This document shows, piece after piece, positions 6,265 through 49,219 of a stretch of DNA of 64,000 nt. The position numbers and the translations under genes are program-made. The notes under the pieces were generated by a model. The model made no database searches and was not told where the DNA came from. It saw only the letters and a list, made by a program, of their open reading frames with translations. The stretch is from Oleispira sp. Lineage in GTDB: Bacteria > Pseudomonadota > Gammaproteobacteria > Pseudomonadales > Oceanobacteraceae. The DNA is taken from the NCBI GenBank assembly GCA_047616865.1, contig JBLGBO010000009.1:72076-136075 (forward strand), read 5' to 3'. Numbering within the stretch: the stretch's first letter is position 1; each line of letters starts with the position of its first letter.

Positions 6265-9231
6265 TTAAGCGAAATGACGCACTTCGCCATCCCCCGCAAT
6301 ATTCGTTACACAACGGCTGCATAAAGTCGCATGTTCAGGATGCAAACCAACCGTCACATTGTGATGCCAGCAACGCTCGCATTTAATCGCCGTTGATGCA
6401 GAAAGCGATAAACGCAAACCACTAACATCTGTTTTTTGAGTCGTTGCTTCATCTGCAGAAGCTAACGTTTGAACATCGGCTGTTGAAGTAATTGTTACAA
6501 AGCGAAGTTCTTCACCTAGCTTTTCTAACTGAGTTTTTAATGCGTCATCGGCATATAAAGTGATATCAGCAGCTAAGCTTGAACCGACTTTCTTTTCAGC
6601 ACGGGCTTCTTCTAATATTTTATTCACAGCAGTTTTAACCGCCATAATTTGACGCCAGTAAGCATCATTTAGACTCAAGTCTTTAACTTCAGGAAGCTCA
6701 TACCATTCAGCAAGAAGCACTGATTTTTCACGTTCACGCTCATTGCCTTCAGCATCGACCGCAACCGGTAAAACATCCCAAATTTCTTCAGCAGTGAAAC
6801 TCAGCACTGGAGCAACCCAACGTACCATCGCTTCCGCAATATGGTACAAGGCCGTCTGCGCACTACGACGCGCGAGGCCATCAGCCTTACAGGTGTACTG
6901 GCGATCTTTAATAATATCTAGATAGAAAGCACCCAGTTCACCGACACTGAAGTTCATCAACAGCTTGGTCAAACCACTGAAGTTATAATCGCTATAAAGC
7001 TCTTTTACCTGCTTATCGATGTTCACTGCGCGATCTAAGATCCAAGCATCCAACGGCAACATATCTTCTACCGCAACCAAATCCGTTTTAGGATTAAAGC
7101 CAGCAATGTTGGCTAATAAGAAGCGACAAGTATTACGAATACGACGATAAGCATCGGCGTTACGTTTTAAAATTTCATCAGATACTGTCATCTCAGTGCT
7201 GTAGTCGGTATCGGCTACCCACCAGCGTAAAATGTCAGCGCCAAGTTTATCCATCACTTCGATAGGCGATACGGTATTACCGATCGACTTCGACATCTTG
7301 CGACCTTTCGCATCAACGGTAAAACCATGCGTCAAAGCGGTTTTATAAGGCGCTTGACCTTTCGCTGCAACCGAGGTCAATAATGACGACTGGAACCAAC
7401 CACGGTGTTGATCTGAACCTTCCAGATACAAATCAGCAGGAGAGCGCAAACCATCACGCTCATCCAACACAGCTGCGTGAGTCACACCCGAGTCAAACCA
7501 TACGTCTAATGTATCAGTTACTTTTACATAATTTTCAGCGTCTTCATCGCTAAGAAGATCTTGTACTTCTAATTCAAACCAAGCATCAATGCCTTTTTCT
7601 TCGACCTTTAACGCAACTTTCTCGATTAAGGCTTGGCTATCTGGATGCAGTGCGGAGGTTTCTTTGTGAACGAATAAGGCAATTGGCACCCCCCAAGTAC
7701 GCTGACGAGAAATACACCAATCAGGACGGCCATTCATCATGCCTTCGATACGGGCTTTACCCCAAGTTGGACGCCATTCGATATCATGTTCAACCGCGTG
7801 CATCGCTTGTGATAATAAAGACGTTTCCGCATTTTTAGATTCCATGGCGATAAACCACTGCGGCGTCGCACGGAAAATAATCGGCGTTTTATGGCGCCAG
7901 CAATGTGGGTAGCTGTGCTCGATTTTTAATTTCTTAATCAAAGCACCCTTCTCGCCAAGGATACCCAATACGCGGAAATTACCTTTATCGGCAACTGACA
8001 AGCCCGCAAGCTCTAGGCTTTCTAATTCTGGGCTATTGATGAAAGTCCCTTCTGCACTCACCAACATAGTTTCAGAGAAAATACCGTAGTGATTACATAC
8101 AACATAATCGTCTGCACCGTGCATAGGTGCAGTGTGAACAGAACCCGTACCTGCATCGGCCGTTACGTGAGTGCCTGTAATTACACGTACTTGCTTAAGA
8201 TCGTTTCCATTTTTTCCTGGCATAAATGGATGATTAACTTTCATTGTACTGTTTCTGGAATCATCTAATGTCCAGCCAAAATCTGCACCCTTAGCGTTAG
8301 CAATTACTTTAAAGTCTGTAATGCCATAACGACCCATCGCATCTTCAACAAGAGCCGTTGCCAGAACTAGTATTTCATCACTCTCAGCCAAATAGACTAA
8401 GGAGTATTCTAATTCTGGATGAACCGAAACCGCTTCGTTAGCAGGCAACGTCCAAGGCGTAGTAGTCCAAATAACAATGCTTGTTTTTCTACCGATATAG
8501 CTTTCTTCTGGCTCTACAAATGTAAAACGGTCACGAATATCATGTGAATTTGTAAATTCAAACTTCACATCAATGGCGATCGACTTTTTGTCTTGGTACT
8601 CAACTTCCGCTTCCGCCAATGCAGAACCACAATCCATACACCAGTTAACGGGCTTAAAGCCTTTTTCTAAATGGCCGTTGTCGGCAATTTTACCCAAGGT
8701 ACGAATGATGTTGGCTTCGAATTTGAAGTCCATGGTTAGGTAAGGATTTTCCCAATCACCTAATACCATCAAACGCTTAAAACCTTCACGCTGGCCATCA
8801 ACTTGCTTGGCCGCGTATTCACGACAATGTTGACGAAACTCAGCCGGAGTCACTTTATCCCCAGCTTTGCCAACCAATTCTTCAACTTTTAATTCAATCG
8901 GTAAACCGTGGCAATCCCAACCAGGAACATACGGTGCATCAAAGCCAGACATCGTCTTCGACTTAATGATGATATCTTTTAATACCTTGTTTACAGCGTG
9001 GCCAATGTGAATATCACCGTTCGCGTACGGAGGGCCATCGTGCAAAATAAACTGTTCACGACCAGAGCGAGCATTTCGAATTTTTTGGTACAAGCCCATA
9101 TCTTGCCACTGAGCTAACAATTCAGGCTCACGCTTCGCCAAATTTCCACGCATCGGGAAATCAGTTTCTGGCAAGTTTAATGTCGCCTTGTATTGGCTCT
9201 CTACTTTTCCCGCTTGGTCTTTATTGCTCAT
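6265..9231 (-). CDS. ileS: isoleucine--tRNA ligase
   Basis: 988 aa with the HIGH motif ([12 protein letters not shown]), KMSKS, and a C-terminal zinc finger CxxC...CxxC. Confidence 0.97.
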
Positions 9232-41523: not shown

Positions 41524-42252
41524 ATGTCACATCTATTCGCGGCACTCCTGATTTTACTTAGTGTTACTGTATTGGCAAACCCATTAACCATAGTGACGGA
41601 GCAGTATCCTCCCTACAACTATGAAGAACAGGGTTCTATAAAAGGAATGAGTACAGAAGTTGTAAGCGCCGTTTTAAAAGAATTGGATTTAGAGGTAGAC
41701 ATAGAAATATACCCCTGGGCCCGCGCATATGATATGGCCTCTACCCAAGAGAACGTACTGATATATTCCATTAGCCGCACCCCTCAGCGTGAATCATTAT
41801 TTAACTGGGTAGGGGTGATTGCATCTATTGATTTCACGATTTTCGCATTAGAAAGAAGACAGGACATTAATATCCAGTCCTTAGAAGATATCCGAGCCTA
41901 CATGTTAGGCCTAGTTAGGGGTGATGCCCTTGAACAGTTTTTTAGCGCTAACAATTTCACTGAGATAGAAAGAGTCAATACCAATAAACAGGCAATGGAA
42001 ATGCTGCTTGCGAGCAGAACCGATCTATGGCCAATATCAAAGCAAGCCGGCGCCTATATTCTAAAGAAAAACAACATGATACCAGCCCAAACCGTGAGGG
42101 CTGTATTTGAACTAGAAGAGTTTTCTTCTGAAGACCTGTACATGGCTTTTAGTCGCTCGACCAATAAAAAACTCGTGAATGACTTTAAGCGTGCCTTAGA
42201 AAAGATAAAGGAAAACGGTATTTATAACGAGATTATTTCACGCTATCAGTAA
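41524..42252 (+). CDS. orphan periplasmic substrate-binding protein (SBP_bac_3/PBPb family)
   Basis: 242 aa with a signal peptide and a type-3 solute-binding fold. No adjacent permease or ATPase. Confidence 0.7.
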   Translation: MSHLFAALLILLSVTVLANPLTIVTEQYPPYNYEEQGSIKGMSTEVVSAVLKELDLEVDIEIYPWARAYDMASTQENVLIYSISRTPQRESLFNWVGVIASIDFTIFALERRQDINIQSLEDIRAYMLGLVRGDALEQFFSANNFTEIERVNTNKQAMEMLLASRTDLWPISKQAGAYILKKNNMIPAQTVRAVFELEEFSSEDLYMAFSRSTNKKLVNDFKRALEKIKENGIYNEIISRYQ

Positions 42253-42419: not shown

Positions 42420-43295
42420 TCAATCGCAATGATGAATACTTTCATTCAATACTCGATGAAATAAAGAATTCAATAAATCTATCGAATCTCCCTTGTCGCC
42501 ATATTTCCCAGCATAGCTTTCAAGCCTTAATAACTCAGTTTCAATAAAGGTATTAATGGGTTTTATAGGCAACGACAAAGCTTTTTCTGTCTCTGCTCGT
42601 TTACGGCGTAATAATTCGTTTATGTCTTCTAGCAAGCTATCGTTATCAAGTACACGATCCAACAAAACCGAAAACTGAATCGGCGCAGGTGTTTTATAAC
42701 GTTCTAACCAGCGTATCGATAGCAAAGCCCTTAGCACATAGAGATATTTTTTATAGGGCACTTTATCTGCTTTAAGATAACCTCGGTAATTGGTCTTGGC
42801 CATGCTGTGATAATGATGAATACCTTTTTCAGCGCTGTATATTTCTGGCAATAATGCCTTAGCACTCAAAGCAAAGTTTCCTTCGTTCGTATAAACAATC
42901 GGTGAATTGATCCACTCTACAAATGACGGATTGGAATTGCTGTATAGCTTCAAGGCTTTACGCAGATCCCAGCCATTAATATCGATCTCATCTACGATGG
43001 GATATTCGATAACATCTCGTTTAGCTTCTAAATCTATGTCTATATACCAATCTTTTTTGTGTATATAGATAAAACGTACATCATAATCACTCGTCGCTGA
43101 GGCAAAACCCCAAGCACGACTCCCTGACTCAATCGCTAGCAATACTTTAACGCCGTGCTCGATTTCTGCCGCGGCGATACGGTCTAATATTTCGTCGTGT
43201 ATGTTTTTTTCTATGTGCTCTATGGCATTTATTTCCATATCCAGTTTCATTTTATTGACTTTCCTTAATATATTTTTTAACCAGGCTAATCTCAT
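42420..43295 (-). CDS. Pol-beta-superfamily nucleotidyltransferase, RlaP-like (RNA-ligase-associated NTase family)
   Basis: GSRAWGFASATSDYDVRFIY is a hG[GS]x9-13DhD minimal NTase active site. 291 aa. Last gene of the rtcBA-linked module. Confidence 0.65.
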   Translation of the reverse strand: MRLAWLKNILRKVNKMKLDMEINAIEHIEKNIHDEILDRIAAAEIEHGVKVLLAIESGSRAWGFASATSDYDVRFIYIHKKDWYIDIDLEAKRDVIEYPIVDEIDINGWDLRKALKLYSNSNPSFVEWINSPIVYTNEGNFALSAKALLPEIYSAEKGIHHYHSMAKTNYRGYLKADKVPYKKYLYVLRALLSIRWLERYKTPAPIQFSVLLDRVLDNDSLLEDINELLRRKRAETEKALSLPIKPINTFIETELLRLESYAGKYGDKGDSIDLLNSLFHRVLNESIHHCD

Positions 43296-43324
43296 TTATT
43301 TGAAACTAGGCTAACCAACTGCGC

Positions 43325-44521
43325 TTATGTTCCTGACTGTCTAGTAGCAGAAGGGATTTTCACCAAATCATTCATTAAACCATCCAGCCCACCGTAAACA
43401 GAGATGTTATTAATACGGGCTGATATTTTTTCAAGTGTTTCCAGCTCTTTTAGGCGTAACAAGACAGCGTTATTTTCCATGACCTTCGCGGTATTGTGCA
43501 AGGAGCGCATCGCTTGAGTTTCTTCACGCCTTTTAATTAGATTAGCCTCAGCTTCTTTTTGCGCCTCTACTACCTTATTTAAAATTGCCTTCATGTCACC
43601 AGGCAATATAATGTCTTTGACACCCACCGACTGGACTTCAATGCCATACTCCATTAACCGAGTAGATATGCTGTTTTCTATGCATTCATTTAAGCTGTCT
43701 TTGTTTTCTAGCAACGCATCCAACGTTTGCGTACCTACGGCTTCACGTAAACGCAGCTGCATTTCGCGGTAGATAAAATCATTCATGCCATTCAATTTTA
43801 ATGCCGCTTTTTCTGCATCTACTATACAATAACTGGCACTTAGATTAATTCGCAAACTAACCCGGTCGCGCGTCAAAATCTCCTGCCCACTGACCTCCAG
43901 CGATTGTAAGCGTAAATCGATCATTTGCACTTCGATTGCTCTATTGTACTTCCAGAAACCGTACTGGCCTGGTGGCAAGAGGCGCTCATATTTACCGTTT
44001 ACAATTAATAGTGCGCAAAACTCGTTACGTACTTCAATATAACTAACGGCCTGAGCCAGTGTGTGTATTTTTTCCGAACCCGTTTGCATGATGGCATTAG
44101 CACCACGGCCTAAAAGATTCAAGTAACGACTATCGATTTGATAGCTTTCGCTGATATCAATAACCTTCACCGATACTTGTTCAGTATTTTCCATTTCATC
44201 ACCGCTAAAAAAGGCAACAAAACGACCTGGCTCCAACAGATCAACTAAGTGTCCATCACGAAAGACAAGGCCAACCTGATTATCAGTCATTTCATAATGA
44301 CTGATATAAGGCGTTAAAATTTCTGCGTATTTATTTAATAAAAACTTGGCATTATCATCTTGAAAATATAAACCTGTCACGTCGTGAATTTTTAATTCCA
44401 ATGCGCCATTGGCAGAAAATTCTCTGTACCGACCTGGCATTAATATTTTTTCAAAGCGCTGGCAGCGATATAACAAGCCTATCTGATTATCGGCGATATC
44501 ATAAGTGTTCCATAATTTCAT
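43325..44521 (-). CDS. SPFH/band-7 (slipin-like) domain protein with triplicated N-terminal SPFH-head motif
   Basis: C-terminal core GVKDIILPGDMKAILNKVVEAQKEAEANLIKRREETQA is SPFH. Three N-terminal copies of xNQxGLxxRxG...LxPGxYxF. No clear TM segment. Confidence 0.75.
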   Translation of the reverse strand: MKLWNTYDIADNQIGLLYRCQRFEKILMPGRYREFSANGALELKIHDVTGLYFQDDNAKFLLNKYAEILTPYISHYEMTDNQVGLVFRDGHLVDLLEPGRFVAFFSGDEMENTEQVSVKVIDISESYQIDSRYLNLLGRGANAIMQTGSEKIHTLAQAVSYIEVRNEFCALLIVNGKYERLLPPGQYGFWKYNRAIEVQMIDLRLQSLEVSGQEILTRDRVSLRINLSASYCIVDAEKAALKLNGMNDFIYREMQLRLREAVGTQTLDALLENKDSLNECIENSISTRLMEYGIEVQSVGVKDIILPGDMKAILNKVVEAQKEAEANLIKRREETQAMRSLHNTAKVMENNAVLLRLKELETLEKISARINNISVYGGLDGLMNDLVKIPSATRQSGT

Positions 44522-44761
44522 TTCATTTTACCTAACTCATACGAGCCATATTATATTTACTGAGGCGAGACCCTATCGGGAATGGTATGGTATTTTGCTT
44601 AGGTTAACAGGTTGATAAATACAGGGGCTACTCAGTGGTAATAACAACGGTATTCGCTTGCTATTACCATTAATTAGCATGTCGTTATCAAGTCCGCTAA
44701 CCAACCGACAAAATGCGATGCCATTGCAAATGGACCTCTATCAATTTATTCAAAGTTTAAA

Positions 44762-44826
44762 TGACTTTGTGAGGATTTGAACCTCGGGTCTTACGACCTT
44801 ACCGTAAGCCGTTGTTTAGACGGTGA
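44762..44826 (-). ncRNA. tRNA 3'-half-like element (class-II-like variable hairpin + T-arm GGTTCAAATCC + 3' acceptor strand, no 5' half)
   Basis: Reverse complement ...GGTCGTAAGACC-CGAGG-TTCAAAT-CCTCA-CAAAGTC-A. No matching 5' acceptor strand upstream. Directly abuts the tRNA-like element at 44829-44901. Confidence 0.4.
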
Positions 44827-44828
44827 AT

Positions 44829-44901
44829 GACTATCGCAGGAATCGAACCTGCACCGATCGACTTTTGTCGATTGCTCTAACTCACTGAGCTACATAGTCG
44901 C
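44829..44901 (-). ncRNA. non-canonical tRNA-like element (acceptor stem, D-arm and T-arm are good; anticodon loop has 6 nt). Candidate YrlA/Y-RNA-like RNA or tRNA pseudogene.
   Basis: Reverse complement GACTATG-TA-GCTC-AGTGAGTTA-GAGC-A-ATCGA-CAAAAG-TCGAT-CGGT-GCAGG-TTCGATT-CCTGC-GATAGTC-A. Stems pair, but the anticodon loop is 6 nt, so it is not a functional decoder. Confidence 0.5.
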
Positions 44902-45042
44902 ATTTAGGTTTTTTATCAGTGGTACACAATAAGTGAATAACCTTGCGCCAGCCTGGCATACAGAACCAGAACCATTAACTTAATAAAATATTGCCTAAAT
45001 AATTTTGTTCGAACGCTGTTTAAAACAACGCCGTCGCATTTT

Positions 45043-46086
45043 TTAATTTATCAATTCTTGCAAGTTTTTTAGGGGCGGTATATCCAGCTGCCAGCAACGC
45101 TTGTTTAATTGGTTCACTTCAATATTCAAATCCAGAAGTTGTTGAATAACGTTAATATTGGTAGTTGTATGTAAACTTGGTCGCCCTGTTTTAAAACTTC
45201 CCCCAGCAAATAACATCGGCAGTAATAATTGATCCGCCAAATATTCGCATACAGGCACTTGATTTTTCAGGTAACTTTGCACCCGCTGTTCAGCCAAGTT
45301 AGCGACCTTTTCGGCACGTAAACCTCTGCCACCCAGCTCATCAAATACTAGGGTGGTGTTCTCCATCGTCAGCTTCAGTGACAACAAATTTCCTGGCCCC
45401 GTAGACTCAACTAACTGCTCACTACACTCTTCTGGTAGCCAATGATGCTGCTGTTGTAATTGGCGTAATTCACGCACTAACACCTGCTGGGGAATTTGAC
45501 TGCCAATAGCATTGGCTTTTTTATCCACAAGTGCACCACTGTCTAATAACTGCAATGGCTCTAACACTTTGTGCGGTTTCAATTCCATCTTGATTGCACC
45601 ACCACCAGCGGGGTTAAAACCGTATTTCAATAGTTCGGCGGTGATCTGATAACCCATCTTTCTAACGGCCAAAATAAAACTGTTATTTAAAAATTCAAAA
45701 CTTGGTGCTTTGCTATTATGTGTACCGCCATTAATAATTACAGAGGATGCATGCGACTGTAATAATAGAGGCATCATTATAGTTTGTAGTACCAAGCTAG
45801 TACTGCCAGCGCTACCTACGGAAAATTCATAATCGCCGGGAATTACATTCCCTGGTTTAAAAATAACCTCTTGAGATCCCAGCTCATCACCACTGACATC
45901 TGCAGAACAAATAGTTTGTGCAGCGCGCAAGCAGGTTAAGTGCTGGCGTAACAAGCCAGGTTTTTTACGACCCCCTCGGATATTAACGATACGCACATCA
46001 AGACCTAGACACATCGCCAGGGTCAGTGTGGTGCGAAATATTTGTCCTCCACCTTCACCGGCGGCGCCATTAATTGTTCTCATCAT
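45043..46086 (-). CDS. rtcA: RNA 3'-terminal phosphate cyclase
   Basis: MMRTINGAAGEGGGQIFRTTLTLAM... aligns with E. coli RtcA [20 protein letters not shown]. The active-site His region (LQTIMMPLLLQSH) is present. Confidence 0.9.
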   Translation of the reverse strand: MMRTINGAAGEGGGQIFRTTLTLAMCLGLDVRIVNIRGGRKKPGLLRQHLTCLRAAQTICSADVSGDELGSQEVIFKPGNVIPGDYEFSVGSAGSTSLVLQTIMMPLLLQSHASSVIINGGTHNSKAPSFEFLNNSFILAVRKMGYQITAELLKYGFNPAGGGAIKMELKPHKVLEPLQLLDSGALVDKKANAIGSQIPQQVLVRELRQLQQQHHWLPEECSEQLVESTGPGNLLSLKLTMENTTLVFDELGGRGLRAEKVANLAEQRVQSYLKNQVPVCEYLADQLLLPMLFAGGSFKTGRPSLHTTTNINVIQQLLDLNIEVNQLNKRCWQLDIPPLKNLQELIN

Positions 46087-46123
46087 TCTTCCTTTAAATA
46101 CAATTTTCACTAATACTAAGTAA

Positions 46124-47350
46124 TTAACCTTTTACACAGACGACCTGTTTTAGCGTGTAGACAACTTCTACCAGATCTTTTTGCGCCTCCATTACCTTCT
46201 CAATGGATTTGTAAGCTGAAGGGGTTTCATCCAATATGCCCTCATCTGTTCTGCACTCCACACCCTCAAGTGCTTTTTTATGCTCAGTCATCGACACTAA
46301 TTTCTTAGCGGCCGTTCGTGACATCACACGTCCAGCACCATGACTGCAACTGCAAAAACTATCAGCATTGCCCAGTCCCCGCACAATAAAAGATTTTGCA
46401 CCCATGCTGCCAGGGATAATGCCCATCTCATCTTTTTGTGCCGATACCGCGCCCTTACGGGTAACCAATACATCCTTACCAAAATGATGCTCACGAGAAA
46501 TATAGTTATGGTGACAATTCACGGCTTCCACTCTTGCCTCAAACTCAATTCCCATAGTGAGCCTTACCGCCGCAATTACCCGAGCCATCATGACCTCACG
46601 GTTAATACGAGCAAAATTTTGTGCCCACTCTACCGCCTCAACATAATCAGTAAAATTATCGGAGCCCTCTGGCAAATAAGACAAATCGTTATCGGGCAAA
46701 TGTATATGCCAGCGCTCCATATCCTGCTTCGCCTTTTCGATAAAGTGCGTCCCTATACGGTTGCCTACACCACGAGAGCCACTGTGCAGCATAATCCATA
46801 CACTATTGTGCTCATCTAGGCACAACTCAATAAAATGGTTTCCCGTTCCCAACGTACCCAAATGATTCATGTTGTTGGTATTTTTCAAGACCTTATGTTT
46901 TTCTTTTAAAATATCAAACTGACCAGCCAATGGAGTCCACGCCTTAATTACATCTGCGGGTAAATCATTCCACGACCCCTTATCTCGCGCACCACGCAAG
47001 TGCCTAGAACGACCATGAGGAACGGCTTTTTCAATTGCAGAACGAATAGCAAATAAATTATCCGGTAGCTGATGAGCCAACAAACTGGTTTTAACCGCCA
47101 TCATCCCGCAACCAATATCCACTCCGACGGCCGCTGGAATTACCGCACCAATGGTGGGTACTACCGAACCGATCGTAGCGCCTTTACCTAGATGCACATC
47201 CGGCATGGCGGCAATCCATTTATGAATGAAAGGCATACGTGAAATATTTTTTAGCTGTTCACGGGCTTTGTCTTCAAACGGAACCCCTCGGGTCCAGGTT
47301 TTAATCGGTACACCACCGTCTTGCATCACTTCATAGGCTTCATCTGACAT
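46124..47350 (-). CDS. rtcB: RNA-splicing ligase RtcB
   Basis: 408 aa with PDVHLGKGATIGSV and C-terminal His/Cys metal-site motifs of RtcB. Confidence 0.95.
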   Translation of the reverse strand: MSDEAYEVMQDGGVPIKTWTRGVPFEDKAREQLKNISRMPFIHKWIAAMPDVHLGKGATIGSVVPTIGAVIPAAVGVDIGCGMMAVKTSLLAHQLPDNLFAIRSAIEKAVPHGRSRHLRGARDKGSWNDLPADVIKAWTPLAGQFDILKEKHKVLKNTNNMNHLGTLGTGNHFIELCLDEHNSVWIMLHSGSRGVGNRIGTHFIEKAKQDMERWHIHLPDNDLSYLPEGSDNFTDYVEAVEWAQNFARINREVMMARVIAAVRLTMGIEFEARVEAVNCHHNYISREHHFGKDVLVTRKGAVSAQKDEMGIIPGSMGAKSFIVRGLGNADSFCSCSHGAGRVMSRTAAKKLVSMTEHKKALEGVECRTDEGILDETPSAYKSIEKVMEAQKDLVEVVYTLKQVVCVKG

Positions 47351-47416
47351 TGCTAACTTCCTTACTGAGAATTTTGTTATGGCTCTTGTTATTGCCCTTT
47401 CAGTTACAGTTTGTAT

Positions 47417-47433
47417 AGCGATGACTATGCCAA
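47417..47433 (-). promoter_or_regulatory. sigma54 (-24/-12) promoter for rtcBA
   Basis: Minus-strand TTGGCAT-AGTCA-TCGCT has GG-N10-GC at canonical spacing, ~70 bp upstream of the rtcB ATG. The RtcR bEBP is encoded divergently. Confidence 0.45.
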
Positions 47434-47575
47434 CTTTTCAAATCCTCTTGAAAATAAATCGTAACCTATTGTTTTTATTACATTTATTAATTTTAAATAT
47501 ATTTAAATGAAAATTCACGACCACATAGGTTAGAATAATATCTATCTTATTCGATAGGTTTATAATATTTTAGAT

Positions 47576-49171
47576 ATGAAAACTGTTGCTATTAGTATAT
47601 TGGGTACCGTGCTAGATCGACGAGGAAAACGCCAAAACCGCTGGGATAAGTGGCGACCTACCGTCTCCATCTGCCAACAAGATGACTTAGTGATCGATCG
47701 TCTGGAGTTAATCTTTGATAACCATTCGCTAACCTTGGCTGAACAGGTCAAAGACGACATCGAGCAATCATCACCAGAAACCGAAGTTGTGCTCCATAAG
47801 GTTAATTATTTAGACCCATGGGACTTTGAAGATGTTTATAGCCAGCTTCTAGATTTCAGTCGAGCCTATGATTTCAATACCGATACAGAAGACTATTTAG
47901 TCCACATCACCACAGGGACACACGTTGCTCAGATCTGCCTGTATCTACTAACGGAATCTGGCTACCTGCCTGGGAAGTTAATACAAACCTCACCTTCAAA
48001 AAGTGAAAACAAAGCTAAGGGCTCTTATCAAATCATTGATCTGGATTTATCACGATATGACCAAATAGCCTCTCGCTTCAATAAAGAACATACTGAAGGC
48101 ACCACGCATCTCAAAAGTGGCATTGACACAAAAAACGAAAAATTTAATCTAATGATCGAGCAATTAGAGAAAGTATCCATTCGTTCCGATGAGCCTATTT
48201 TAATCACTGGACCAACAGGCGCAGGCAAATCGAAGCTGGCTGAGCGTATTTATCAATTGCGCAAACAGCGCGCCAAACTAAAGGGAAAACTCATTACGGT
48301 AAATTGTGCAACTTTACGTGGCGATAACGCCATCTCAGCATTATTTGGCCATAAAAAGGGAGCGTTTACTGGAGCGGCAGCAGACCGCACCGGTCTTTTA
48401 AGGGAGGCTAATGACGGTTTATTATTTTTAGATGAGATTGGTGAGCTTGGACTGGATGAGCAAGCAATGTTACTCAGCGCCATTGAAGATAAGCATTTTA
48501 TGCCACTCGGTTCAGATAAAATGGTGTTCAGTGATTTTCAATTAATTGTCGGCACTAACAGAGACTTAATTAAGCAAAGCCAACAAGGAAAGTTCAGGGA
48601 AGATCTATTAGCGCGTATTGATTTATGGACTTACCGATTACCAGCCCTAAAAGAACGCTTAGAAGATTTTGACGCCAATCTTGATTTTGAATTAGATAAA
48701 TTTTCTAGCAAGGCCGGTTACCTAGTGAAATTCAACAAGGCGGCCCGCGAAAAATATTTAGCCTTTTCTAAATCACCAGCCGCTAGCTGGAATGCTAATT
48801 TTCGGGATCTAAATGCCAGCATCACTCGAATGTCTACCCTGTCAGATGGAGGACGCATTACCGAAGACTTAGTTACTGAAGAAGTACTACGACTAAAGCA
48901 CAAATGGCGCGAGACAAATAGCACTGATCCCACACTGGTTTTGCAGTCACTGTTAGATGAGAAGACTTTAAGCGATATGGATTATTACGACCAACTTAAC
49001 TTACTTAATATCATCGATATTTGCCGCAACAGTCAATCAATGGCCGAAGCTGGGAGAACGCTATTTGACAAAAGCCGCCAAATTAAAAAGTCATCCAACG
49101 ACTCTCATAGAGTAAAACAACTACTCAGTAAGCTAGATATTTCTTTCGAAAAAATTCGACAACTGCCATAA
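47576..49171 (+). CDS. rtcR: sigma54-dependent transcriptional activator RtcR (N-terminal CARF-like domain, AAA+ sigma54-interaction domain, C-terminal HTH)
   Basis: Walker A GPTGAGKS and the GAFTGA motif (HKKGAFTGAAADR). 531 aa, divergent from rtcB. Confidence 0.9.
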   Translation: MKTVAISILGTVLDRRGKRQNRWDKWRPTVSICQQDDLVIDRLELIFDNHSLTLAEQVKDDIEQSSPETEVVLHKVNYLDPWDFEDVYSQLLDFSRAYDFNTDTEDYLVHITTGTHVAQICLYLLTESGYLPGKLIQTSPSKSENKAKGSYQIIDLDLSRYDQIASRFNKEHTEGTTHLKSGIDTKNEKFNLMIEQLEKVSIRSDEPILITGPTGAGKSKLAERIYQLRKQRAKLKGKLITVNCATLRGDNAISALFGHKKGAFTGAAADRTGLLREANDGLLFLDEIGELGLDEQAMLLSAIEDKHFMPLGSDKMVFSDFQLIVGTNRDLIKQSQQGKFREDLLARIDLWTYRLPALKERLEDFDANLDFELDKFSSKAGYLVKFNKAAREKYLAFSKSPAASWNANFRDLNASITRMSTLSDGGRITEDLVTEEVLRLKHKWRETNSTDPTLVLQSLLDEKTLSDMDYYDQLNLLNIIDICRNSQSMAEAGRTLFDKSRQIKKSSNDSHRVKQLLSKLDISFEKIRQLP

Positions 49172-49180
49172 CAGGGACAT

Positions 49181-49219
49181 AAAAAAGCCGCGCTCGTTAC
49201 CAAGCGCGGCTTTTATTTC
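49181..49219. terminator. bidirectional intrinsic terminator between rtcR (+) and kdsA (-)
   Basis: aaaaaagccgcgct-cgttacca-agcgcggcttttatttc. Confidence 0.7.

Follow-up and report, generated by a model that had tools for sequence, protein, structure and literature searches.

We describe here an rtc locus in a 64,000-nucleotide (nt) stretch of DNA from Oleispira sp. (assembly GCA_047616865.1, contig JBLGBO010000009.1, positions 72,076 to 136,075; hereafter the window, whose own coordinates are used throughout). The gap between its rtcA gene and the SPFH/Band-7 gene that follows has the strongly covarying pattern of a structured RNA built of several domains, in which a 5' domain, a tRNA-like unit, a module carrying a mimic of the tRNA T arm and a 3' domain succeed one another. 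By its sequence, the locus as a whole is a member of the predicted RtcB/Band-7/b7a-tRNA/RlaP class, here under RtcR/sigma54 control, and not a new composition. It adds no new kind of system; comparison with related loci shows the SPFH gene to be paired almost obligately with the tRNA-like RNA, and the RNA itself to exceed a mere tRNA mimic by far, both in size and in complexity of fold. Rtc systems occur widely and affect the survival of ribosome-targeting antibiotics and tRNA-cleaving toxins, and these findings offer tractable targets for understanding how a tRNA-shaped RNA and a stomatin-like scaffold could contribute to RNA repair.

The conserved RNA runs on the minus strand from approximately 44998 to approximately 44567, about 430 nt of the 521 non-coding nt that separate rtcA from the SPFH gene; the limits proposed in a first-pass annotation of this DNA, 44762–44901, were too narrow. 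Its structure was read from a MAFFT alignment of 69 loci (A2) built from sequence alone, to which the counts below refer unless another set is named. The 5' domain (44902–44998, minus strand) occupies the ~100 nt directly upstream of the tRNA-like unit and comprises five helices, among them an outer stem that pairs TTAGG (44998–44994) with CCTAA (44908–44904) and inner hairpins at 44970–44952 and 44948–44924; its invariant motifs are AGCGG, GGTTCTG, CTGGCRC and TGTGTACC. In this domain 92.4% of the alignment cells are paired, as opposed to 31–46% when the pairing partners are slid, double-change cells number 380 against at most 95 in the control, and the covariation score of 0.562 (at most 0.145 in the control) was reached by none of 500 shuffles.

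The tRNA-like unit, of the b7a-tRNA type (44828–44899, minus strand), lies 306 nt upstream of the SPFH ATG, matches the Rfam tRNA family (RF00005) with 51.2 bits and is called 'tRNA-???' by ARAGORN. It is a cloverleaf with canonical D and T arms and no encoded CCA, and its pairs are 95.8% paired compared with 37–47% for slid partners. The acceptor, anticodon and T stems covary, whereas the D-arm stem GCUC/GAGC (A2 columns 176–179 and 189–192; window 44890–44874) is identical in 69 of 69 members, and an invariant stem amid covarying ones points to sequence-specific recognition of the D arm. The anticodon arm of the window copy is a 6-base-pair (bp) stem capped by an AAAA tetraloop, and hence has no anticodon. 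Across the members the loop is 7 nt long in 51, of which 22 have CUCAUAA, readable as a CAU anticodon, and 4–6 nt long in 18; 44 distinct loop sequences occur, and ACCA is encoded after the acceptor stem in only 13. Because there is no anticodon here, because the loop is short in 18 of the members and because the 'anticodon' differs between orthologues, the element is not an ordinary decoding tRNA, and the possibility, which the first-pass annotation had itself named as fatal to its reading, that these were ordinary tRNA genes is thereby removed. The tetraloop is a stable feature of the clade rather than the product of random decay, since the anticodon arm of a close relative, L082, also closes with one (GAAA). 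An invariant D-arm stem combined with an anticodon loop free to vary and to shrink fits recognition of shape rather than decoding, and it is tRNA shape that is selected. The window copy has a G.G mismatch at position 7-66, at the base of the acceptor stem, and a D-loop without GG. In a nearly identical contig, L083, the D-loop reads GTGGGTT where the window has GTGAGTT (44880), and the 5' domain has GGCAC where the window has GGCGC (44945); these differences and the mismatch could reflect strain variation or slight erosion of the RNA.

Two tandem tRNA-like elements had initially been proposed, and only the first, the cloverleaf just described, stands as such: the second region, 44751–44823 on the minus strand, forms no cloverleaf and contains only a mimic of the T arm, or 'elbow'. 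This module consists of a hairpin (44823–44809), a GNRA-type hairpin (44798–44787), the T-arm mimic GAGGTTCAAATCCTC (44785–44771) and a further hairpin (44769–44751). It is kept across the 69 aligned loci, and hairpin and T-arm mimic covary. In Cellvibrio and its relatives (L076–L080, where L079 is Paraglaciecola marina, ~6520–6800), one or two complete tandem tRNA-like units replace the module. The mimic in the window may thus be a reduced second tRNA-like unit, or the extra units may be expansions of the mimic.

The 3' domain (44567–44738, minus strand) is closed by a long-range helix that pairs GAGGTCC (44738–44732) with GGGTCTC (44573–44567), 7 bp in the window including two G.U pairs; across loci the arms have the consensus GAGGCCCA and TGGGCCTC. 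Aligned globally with MAFFT over all loci, this domain was too gappy; independent alignment of the two arms and a 37-sequence subset were used in its stead. With the arms aligned independently over the 69 loci, the closing helix is 89.7% paired against 42–53% when slid, with compensatory changes from AT to GC in 23 sequences and from CG to TA in 20. Inside the domain, the RNAalifold fold of the 37-sequence subset has 56 pairs, of which 52 show compensatory changes, and it is 87.6% paired compared with 38–40% when slid, a somewhat favourable comparison in that the fold was derived from the same alignment on which it was scored. At 172 nt the window's 3' domain is shorter than most (200–300 nt; 170–300 nt overall), and in all loci examined the domain ends 16–146 nt before the SPFH start codon, a little ahead of the ribosome-binding site, and ~45 nt before that codon in the window.

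When the gap and eight related loci were searched with Rfam 15, RF00005 (tRNA) was the sole match, the 5', mimic and 3' parts remaining unmatched; weak hits to snoR26, HepA IRES, mir-137 and DUF3800-XI were set aside as chance. The extended covarying RNA may not have been described so far. A literature search for structured-RNA surveys mentioning rtcB, or for a novel tRNA-like molecule, returned nothing relevant, and the term 'b7a-tRNA' turned up in a single paper of those searched. Viral contigs were considered as a further source and rejected, as the pattern CTGGCRC...GTGTAYC...GTAGCTCA gave 9 matches where ~40 were expected by chance, none of them with SPFH or Rtc genes or a tRNA.

The pairing of the RNA with the SPFH gene emerges from a wider survey. 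A protein search with the SPFH protein returned more than 7,000 homologues, many of them full length and carrying the NCBI name 'slipin family protein'; the same kind of search in a phage collection gave no full-length homologue. From a scan of species-representative genomes we took 80 related loci with protein identities of 46–61%, which come from Microbulbifer, Cellvibrionaceae, Halieaceae, Kangiellaceae, Ketobacter, Methylococcales and others. In 77 of the 80, ARAGORN calls a tRNA 250–700 nt upstream of the SPFH gene on the same strand. The rtcB gene is on the SPFH strand in 62, rtcR is present in 55 and rtcA in 46, so that linkage of the SPFH gene to rtcB and rtcR is found in most relatives. 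An RlaP-like open reading frame (ORF) occurs in 19, always downstream of the SPFH gene and on the same strand. In most loci the gap before the SPFH gene measures ~500–700 nt, whether rtcA, rtcB or rtcR lies upstream, and it is longer where tRNA arrays have been inserted. Two contigs, both assembled from public sequencing runs, come closest to the window: L083, which is almost the same in sequence, and L082, in which the SPFH protein is 84% identical and the adjacency of SPFH and RlaP genes is kept, as it also is in L019, L061 and Escherichia coli.

The abstract in which Burroughs and Aravind introduced these modules in 2016 is said to speak of 'a novel tRNA-like molecule' that goes with SPFH/Band-7 modules, the name RlaP reportedly standing there for a ligase-associated nucleotidyltransferase. 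As their prediction is relayed in a later preprint, a tRNA-like RNA upstream of a Band-7/SPFH gene next to RtcB, with RlaP in the gene string, would constitute a repair system (Burroughs & Aravind, Nucleic Acids Res. 2016, via bioRxiv 10.1101/312249). The window shares with this class RtcB beside a Band-7/SPFH gene, a tRNA-like RNA encoded immediately ahead of the latter, and RlaP in the string; nothing essential differs, the window having in addition the tetraloop, the larger covarying 5' and 3' domains and the T-arm mimic. The initial view that the composition is unusual, and the system a variant, has consequently had to be given up, since the arrangement matches that published prediction and both RlaP (PMC12776372) and an SPFH protein (PMC13086221) had already been reported in rtc loci. 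RlaP extends RNA 3'-OH ends by 1–2 nucleoside monophosphates, an activity demonstrated on the Pseudomonas fluorescens and Pseudomonas aeruginosa enzymes only, and makes repaired tRNA that had been over-trimmed function better (PMC12776372). In P. aeruginosa PA14 the SPFH gene PaFlo8 is embedded in the rtc locus (PMC13086221).

The five proteins of the locus had been placed correctly at the outset, and each matches the Pfam family expected. On the plus strand, rtcR (47576–49171) encodes a sigma54-dependent activator with an N-terminal RtcR (CARF-type) sensor domain (PF06956, 8.6e-85, residues 2–182; PF00158 Sigma54_activat, 1.2e-45). Divergent from it, as in 55 of the 80 related loci, and across a 225-nt spacer is rtcB (46124–47350, minus strand), the 3'-phosphate/2',3'-cyclic-phosphate RNA ligase (PF01139, 3.3e-127, full length), followed after 13 nt on the same strand by rtcA (45043–46110), the RNA 3'-terminal phosphate cyclase (PF01137, 4.3e-72, plus RTC_insert), whose start is uncertain, being either the GTG as listed or an ATG a few codons inward. 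Beyond the RNA come the SPFH/Band-7 gene (43325–44521, minus strand), which encodes a 398-residue, probably soluble stomatin-type protein (PF01145, 4.8e-29), and, 29 nt downstream of its stop codon, rlaP (42420–43295, minus strand). The product of the latter, a 291-residue Pol-beta nucleotidyltransferase, is a true member of the RlaP family, as had been suspected: it matches PF10127 with 1.9e-81 over profile positions 1–248 of 249 and has the catalytic motif GS...DYD (ESGSRAWGFASATSDYD; motif string GSRAWGFASATSDYD). A comparison of its sequence with those in the PDB gave no match to any solved structure. The gene string ends at rlaP because the next gene, which encodes a solute-binding protein (41524–42252, plus strand), is convergent. 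A genomic island was considered and rejected, the GC content being 38–45% across 34–58 kb with no compositional break.

The RtcR/sigma54 module divergent from rtcB-rtcA, and its extension by the tRNA-like RNA, SPFH protein and RlaP, is borne out by these Pfam matches together with a putative promoter, the sigma54 -24/-12 box TTGGCATAGTCATCGCT (47417–47433, minus strand), a sequence match of the GG-N10-GC type ~67 nt upstream of the rtcB ATG. Of the 54 related loci that contain rtcR, 30 have the same box (TTGGCAY-N5-TCGCT) ahead of rtcB, at 48–185 nt in most of them and farther off in two; in one of the 30 it stands immediately before the RNA and SPFH gene. L075 and L079 are arranged as rtcR / RNA-SPFH-rtcB-rtcA-rlaP, and the sigma54 box there adjoins the RNA on its upstream side. 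Consensus scans of the minus strand from rtcA to the SPFH gene detected no terminator-like, sigma70 promoter-like or further sigma54-like site. Because no internal promoter or terminator was detected, and the SPFH gene and rlaP are only 29 nt apart, one RtcR-driven transcript across the gene string is plausible, as the first-pass annotation had argued. A second sigma54 box within the 5' domain was entertained and rejected: CTGGCRC is conserved there, but no -12 element follows it at a suitable distance, and the covariation of the region is that of an RNA.

The SPFH protein that accompanies the RNA has, in an AlphaFold2 model (predicted local distance difference test score, pLDDT, 78), two N-terminal five-strand beta repeats, an SPFH domain and a long C-terminal helix. 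Three copies of one beta-strand segment (residues 7–66, 79–144 and 173–206) make up the two N-terminal repeats and the start of the SPFH domain, the repeats being homologous to each other with E=3e-8 and to the first SPFH strands with E=1e-4. Inspection of 21 aligned homologues by eye, with no transmembrane predictor run, showed no hydrophobic anchor segment; the lack of a visible anchor is unusual for a stomatin-type protein. The protein matches subunits of cage-forming assemblies and, like them, continues from the SPFH domain into a long oligomerisation helix. It is tempting to speculate that the b7a-tRNA is only the core of one large RNA (~430 nt here, 500–650 nt in relatives), which with the probably soluble, repeat-bearing SPFH protein could form a cage- or ring-shaped ribonucleoprotein (RNP) for tRNA repair, a bacterial counterpart of Ro/Y-RNA or vault particles, a proposal we offer tentatively and with rather less than even confidence. 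The eukaryotic vault invites comparison through its major vault protein with an SPFH 'shoulder' domain, its vault RNA and TEP1 with its TROVE domain. A specifically vault-like reading of the SPFH protein was rejected: major vault protein gives the longest alignment, but stomatin, HflK and prohibitin score above it, and the vault analogy is suggestive only.

A close parallel is the Salmonella operon rsr-yrlB-yrlA-rtcB-rtcA, in which rtcBA under RtcR/sigma54 control is likewise accompanied by an RNA-binding protein that is not an enzyme and by an RNA containing a tRNA-like module, if, as we suppose, the window's SPFH protein binds RNA. It differs in three respects. The first is the partner, which in the window is an SPFH protein: as the first-pass annotation had noted, no Ro60/TROVE (Rsr) gene is present, every ORF from rtcR to the solute-binding-protein gene having been assigned by Pfam to another family, and an Rfam search of all 64 kb of the window gives no Y RNA. 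The second is the position of the RNA and partner protein, after rtcA and not before rtcB. Finally, the tRNA-like unit of the window is a free cloverleaf and not, as in Y RNA, a domain closed by the Ro-binding stem. The suggestion that an SPFH plus nucleotidyltransferase pair takes the place of Rsr needs amending in this light, for it is the SPFH protein and the RNA that parallel Rsr and Y RNA, a RlaP-like gene being present in only 19 of the 80 loci. Pseudomonas rtc loci, like the window, contain RtcR, RtcB, RtcA, RlaP and an SPFH protein, but there (rtcR / rtcB-rlaP-rtcA) rlaP lies between rtcB and rtcA, whereas in the window it follows the SPFH gene. The E. coli K-12 type of operon shares the divergent rtcR, the sigma54 promoter and the order rtcB then rtcA, and stops after rtcA, the point beyond which the window adds the RNA, SPFH gene and rlaP.

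The reading we favour, and consider reasonably probable, is that this is an RtcB/Band-7/b7a-tRNA/RlaP repair system in which the RNA and the SPFH protein form an RNP cofactor for the repair of cleaved tRNA. From the observed identities of the parts, their conserved linkage and the structure of the RNA, we infer a pathway of co-transcription, RNA processing, RNA-protein binding and scaffolding along the following lines. Fragments of cleaved tRNA would bind the sensor domain of RtcR, as is established in Salmonella for 5' tRNA halves ending in a 2',3'-cyclic phosphate (PMC7790460), and RtcR would then switch on the sigma54 promoter at 47417–47433. A single transcript would carry rtcB, rtcA, the ~430-nt structured RNA, the SPFH gene and rlaP, consistent with the absence of internal promoter and terminator matches, and the structured RNA would probably be freed from it by tRNA-processing enzymes. 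Together with the probably soluble, oligomerising stomatin-like protein it could assemble into a ribonucleoprotein scaffold whose tRNA-shaped surfaces would bring the repair enzymes to broken tRNAs or arrange them there: RlaP adding 1–2 nucleotides to trimmed 3' ends, RtcA regenerating cyclic-phosphate ends and RtcB resealing the tRNA.

Several points weigh against this reading. The b7a-tRNA is described in the preprint as not validated experimentally (bioRxiv 10.1101/312249), and deletion of PaFlo8 in P. aeruginosa was without phenotype in standard assays (PMC13086221). RlaP leaves a 3'-OH that RtcB cannot ligate directly, a problem raised by the authors of the RlaP study themselves (PMC12776372). 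Given its G.G mismatch, its D-loop without GG and its short 3' domain with a 7-bp closing helix that includes two G.U pairs, the window's RNA may be a weakened copy. Finally, the SPFH-RlaP pair of E. coli has its own sigma54 box and no adjacent rtcBA, such that the pair can, to judge by that arrangement, act as a separate unit.

Among the alternatives, a decoy or sensor RNA fares best, and we nevertheless think it unlikely. Here the tRNA-like RNA would be bait that soaks up tRNA-targeting toxins, or would itself be cleaved into cyclic-phosphate fragments that amplify RtcR induction, with the SPFH protein merely stabilising or sequestering it. Such a role would be in keeping with the ligand of RtcR being a 5' tRNA half with a cyclic phosphate (PMC7790460), with the arrays of 5–23 tRNA genes in many relatives, which could be spare or resistant tRNAs, and with an anticodon loop that is the sole hypervariable part of the RNA, as expected in an arms race. 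However, that same loop is a tetraloop in the window and L082 and has shrunk to 4–6 nt in 18 of 69 members, making these unlikely targets of anticodon nucleases, and bait would leave both the conserved 5' and 3' structured domains and the near-obligate pairing with the SPFH gene unexplained.

An RNA that acts only in cis strikes us as improbable, slightly more so than the decoy. The tRNA-like unit would then be an RNase P/RNase Z signal that splits the rtcBA message from that of SPFH-rlaP, and the 3' domain a leader for SPFH translation or stability, with no RNA acting in trans. The geometry is what one might expect of a leader, in that the RNA is always directly upstream of the SPFH gene, behind rtcA, rtcB or rtcR alike, and its 3' domain stops within 16–146 nt of the SPFH start in all loci examined; the leader of the E. 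coli slipin-RlaP pair, moreover, retains the T-arm mimic only. A processing signal, though, would need neither ~500 nt and at least 14 covarying helices nor a D arm that never varies and a further T-arm mimic, and the RNA opens the operon in L075 and L079, leaving nothing upstream to split off; nor does Rfam hold a matching riboswitch or leader family. A chance neighbourhood, in which a normal tRNA gene or a tRNA pseudogene and a membrane-scaffold SPFH protein of no related function happened to sit beside rtcBA, is contradicted by the conservation and can hardly be credited even though the element scores above the Rfam threshold for tRNA (51 bits), ARAGORN gives many orthologues ordinary-looking anticodons and SPFH proteins are usually membrane scaffolds, given that the arrangement recurs in 77 of 80 loci from several gammaproteobacterial families and beyond, that the 'anticodon' varies between orthologous positions in a loop often too short, that covarying non-tRNA domains flank the element, and that no hydrophobic anchor was seen by eye in the SPFH protein (no transmembrane predictor having been run).

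The SPFH-RlaP pair is also found on its own. In 1,625 of 5,426 complete E. coli genomes (~30%), a sigma54-linked slipin-RlaP pair lies between a DUF3811 gene and lysC with no adjacent rtcBA. In the example taken here (L081, CP061233.1, 604841–619932), a leader at 6445–6973 precedes slipin (6974–8101) and RlaP (8107–8898); within the leader are a sigma54-type box, TGGCACgcttcTCGCA, and, as T-arm mimic, GGGTTCGATTCCC, but no complete tRNA-like unit, and it gives no Rfam match.

Elsewhere the surroundings of the SPFH gene are more varied. RNA- or tRNA-repair-type genes lie downstream of it in L001 (8730–12134), L016 (8192–9199) and L055 (8638–9609 and 11376–12644), including a second, divergent RlaP-type enzyme (PF10127, 4e-18), an RtcB2-PrfH pair, RNase Z-like metallo-beta-lactamase proteins and a protein with HD and AAA_33 kinase domains; by their sequences, these neighbours fit an RNA/tRNA repair theme. 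At least three additional, ordinary-looking tRNA genes stand beside the SPFH or RtcB genes in 17 of the 80 loci, the largest arrays having up to 22, and could be spare tRNAs tied to the repair system; the window has no such array. The arrays lie upstream of the SPFH gene in L018, L032, L035, L036, L037 and L065 and between the SPFH and RlaP genes in L062 and L070, and smaller extra sets occur in L001, L002, L010, L019, L034, L043 and L059.

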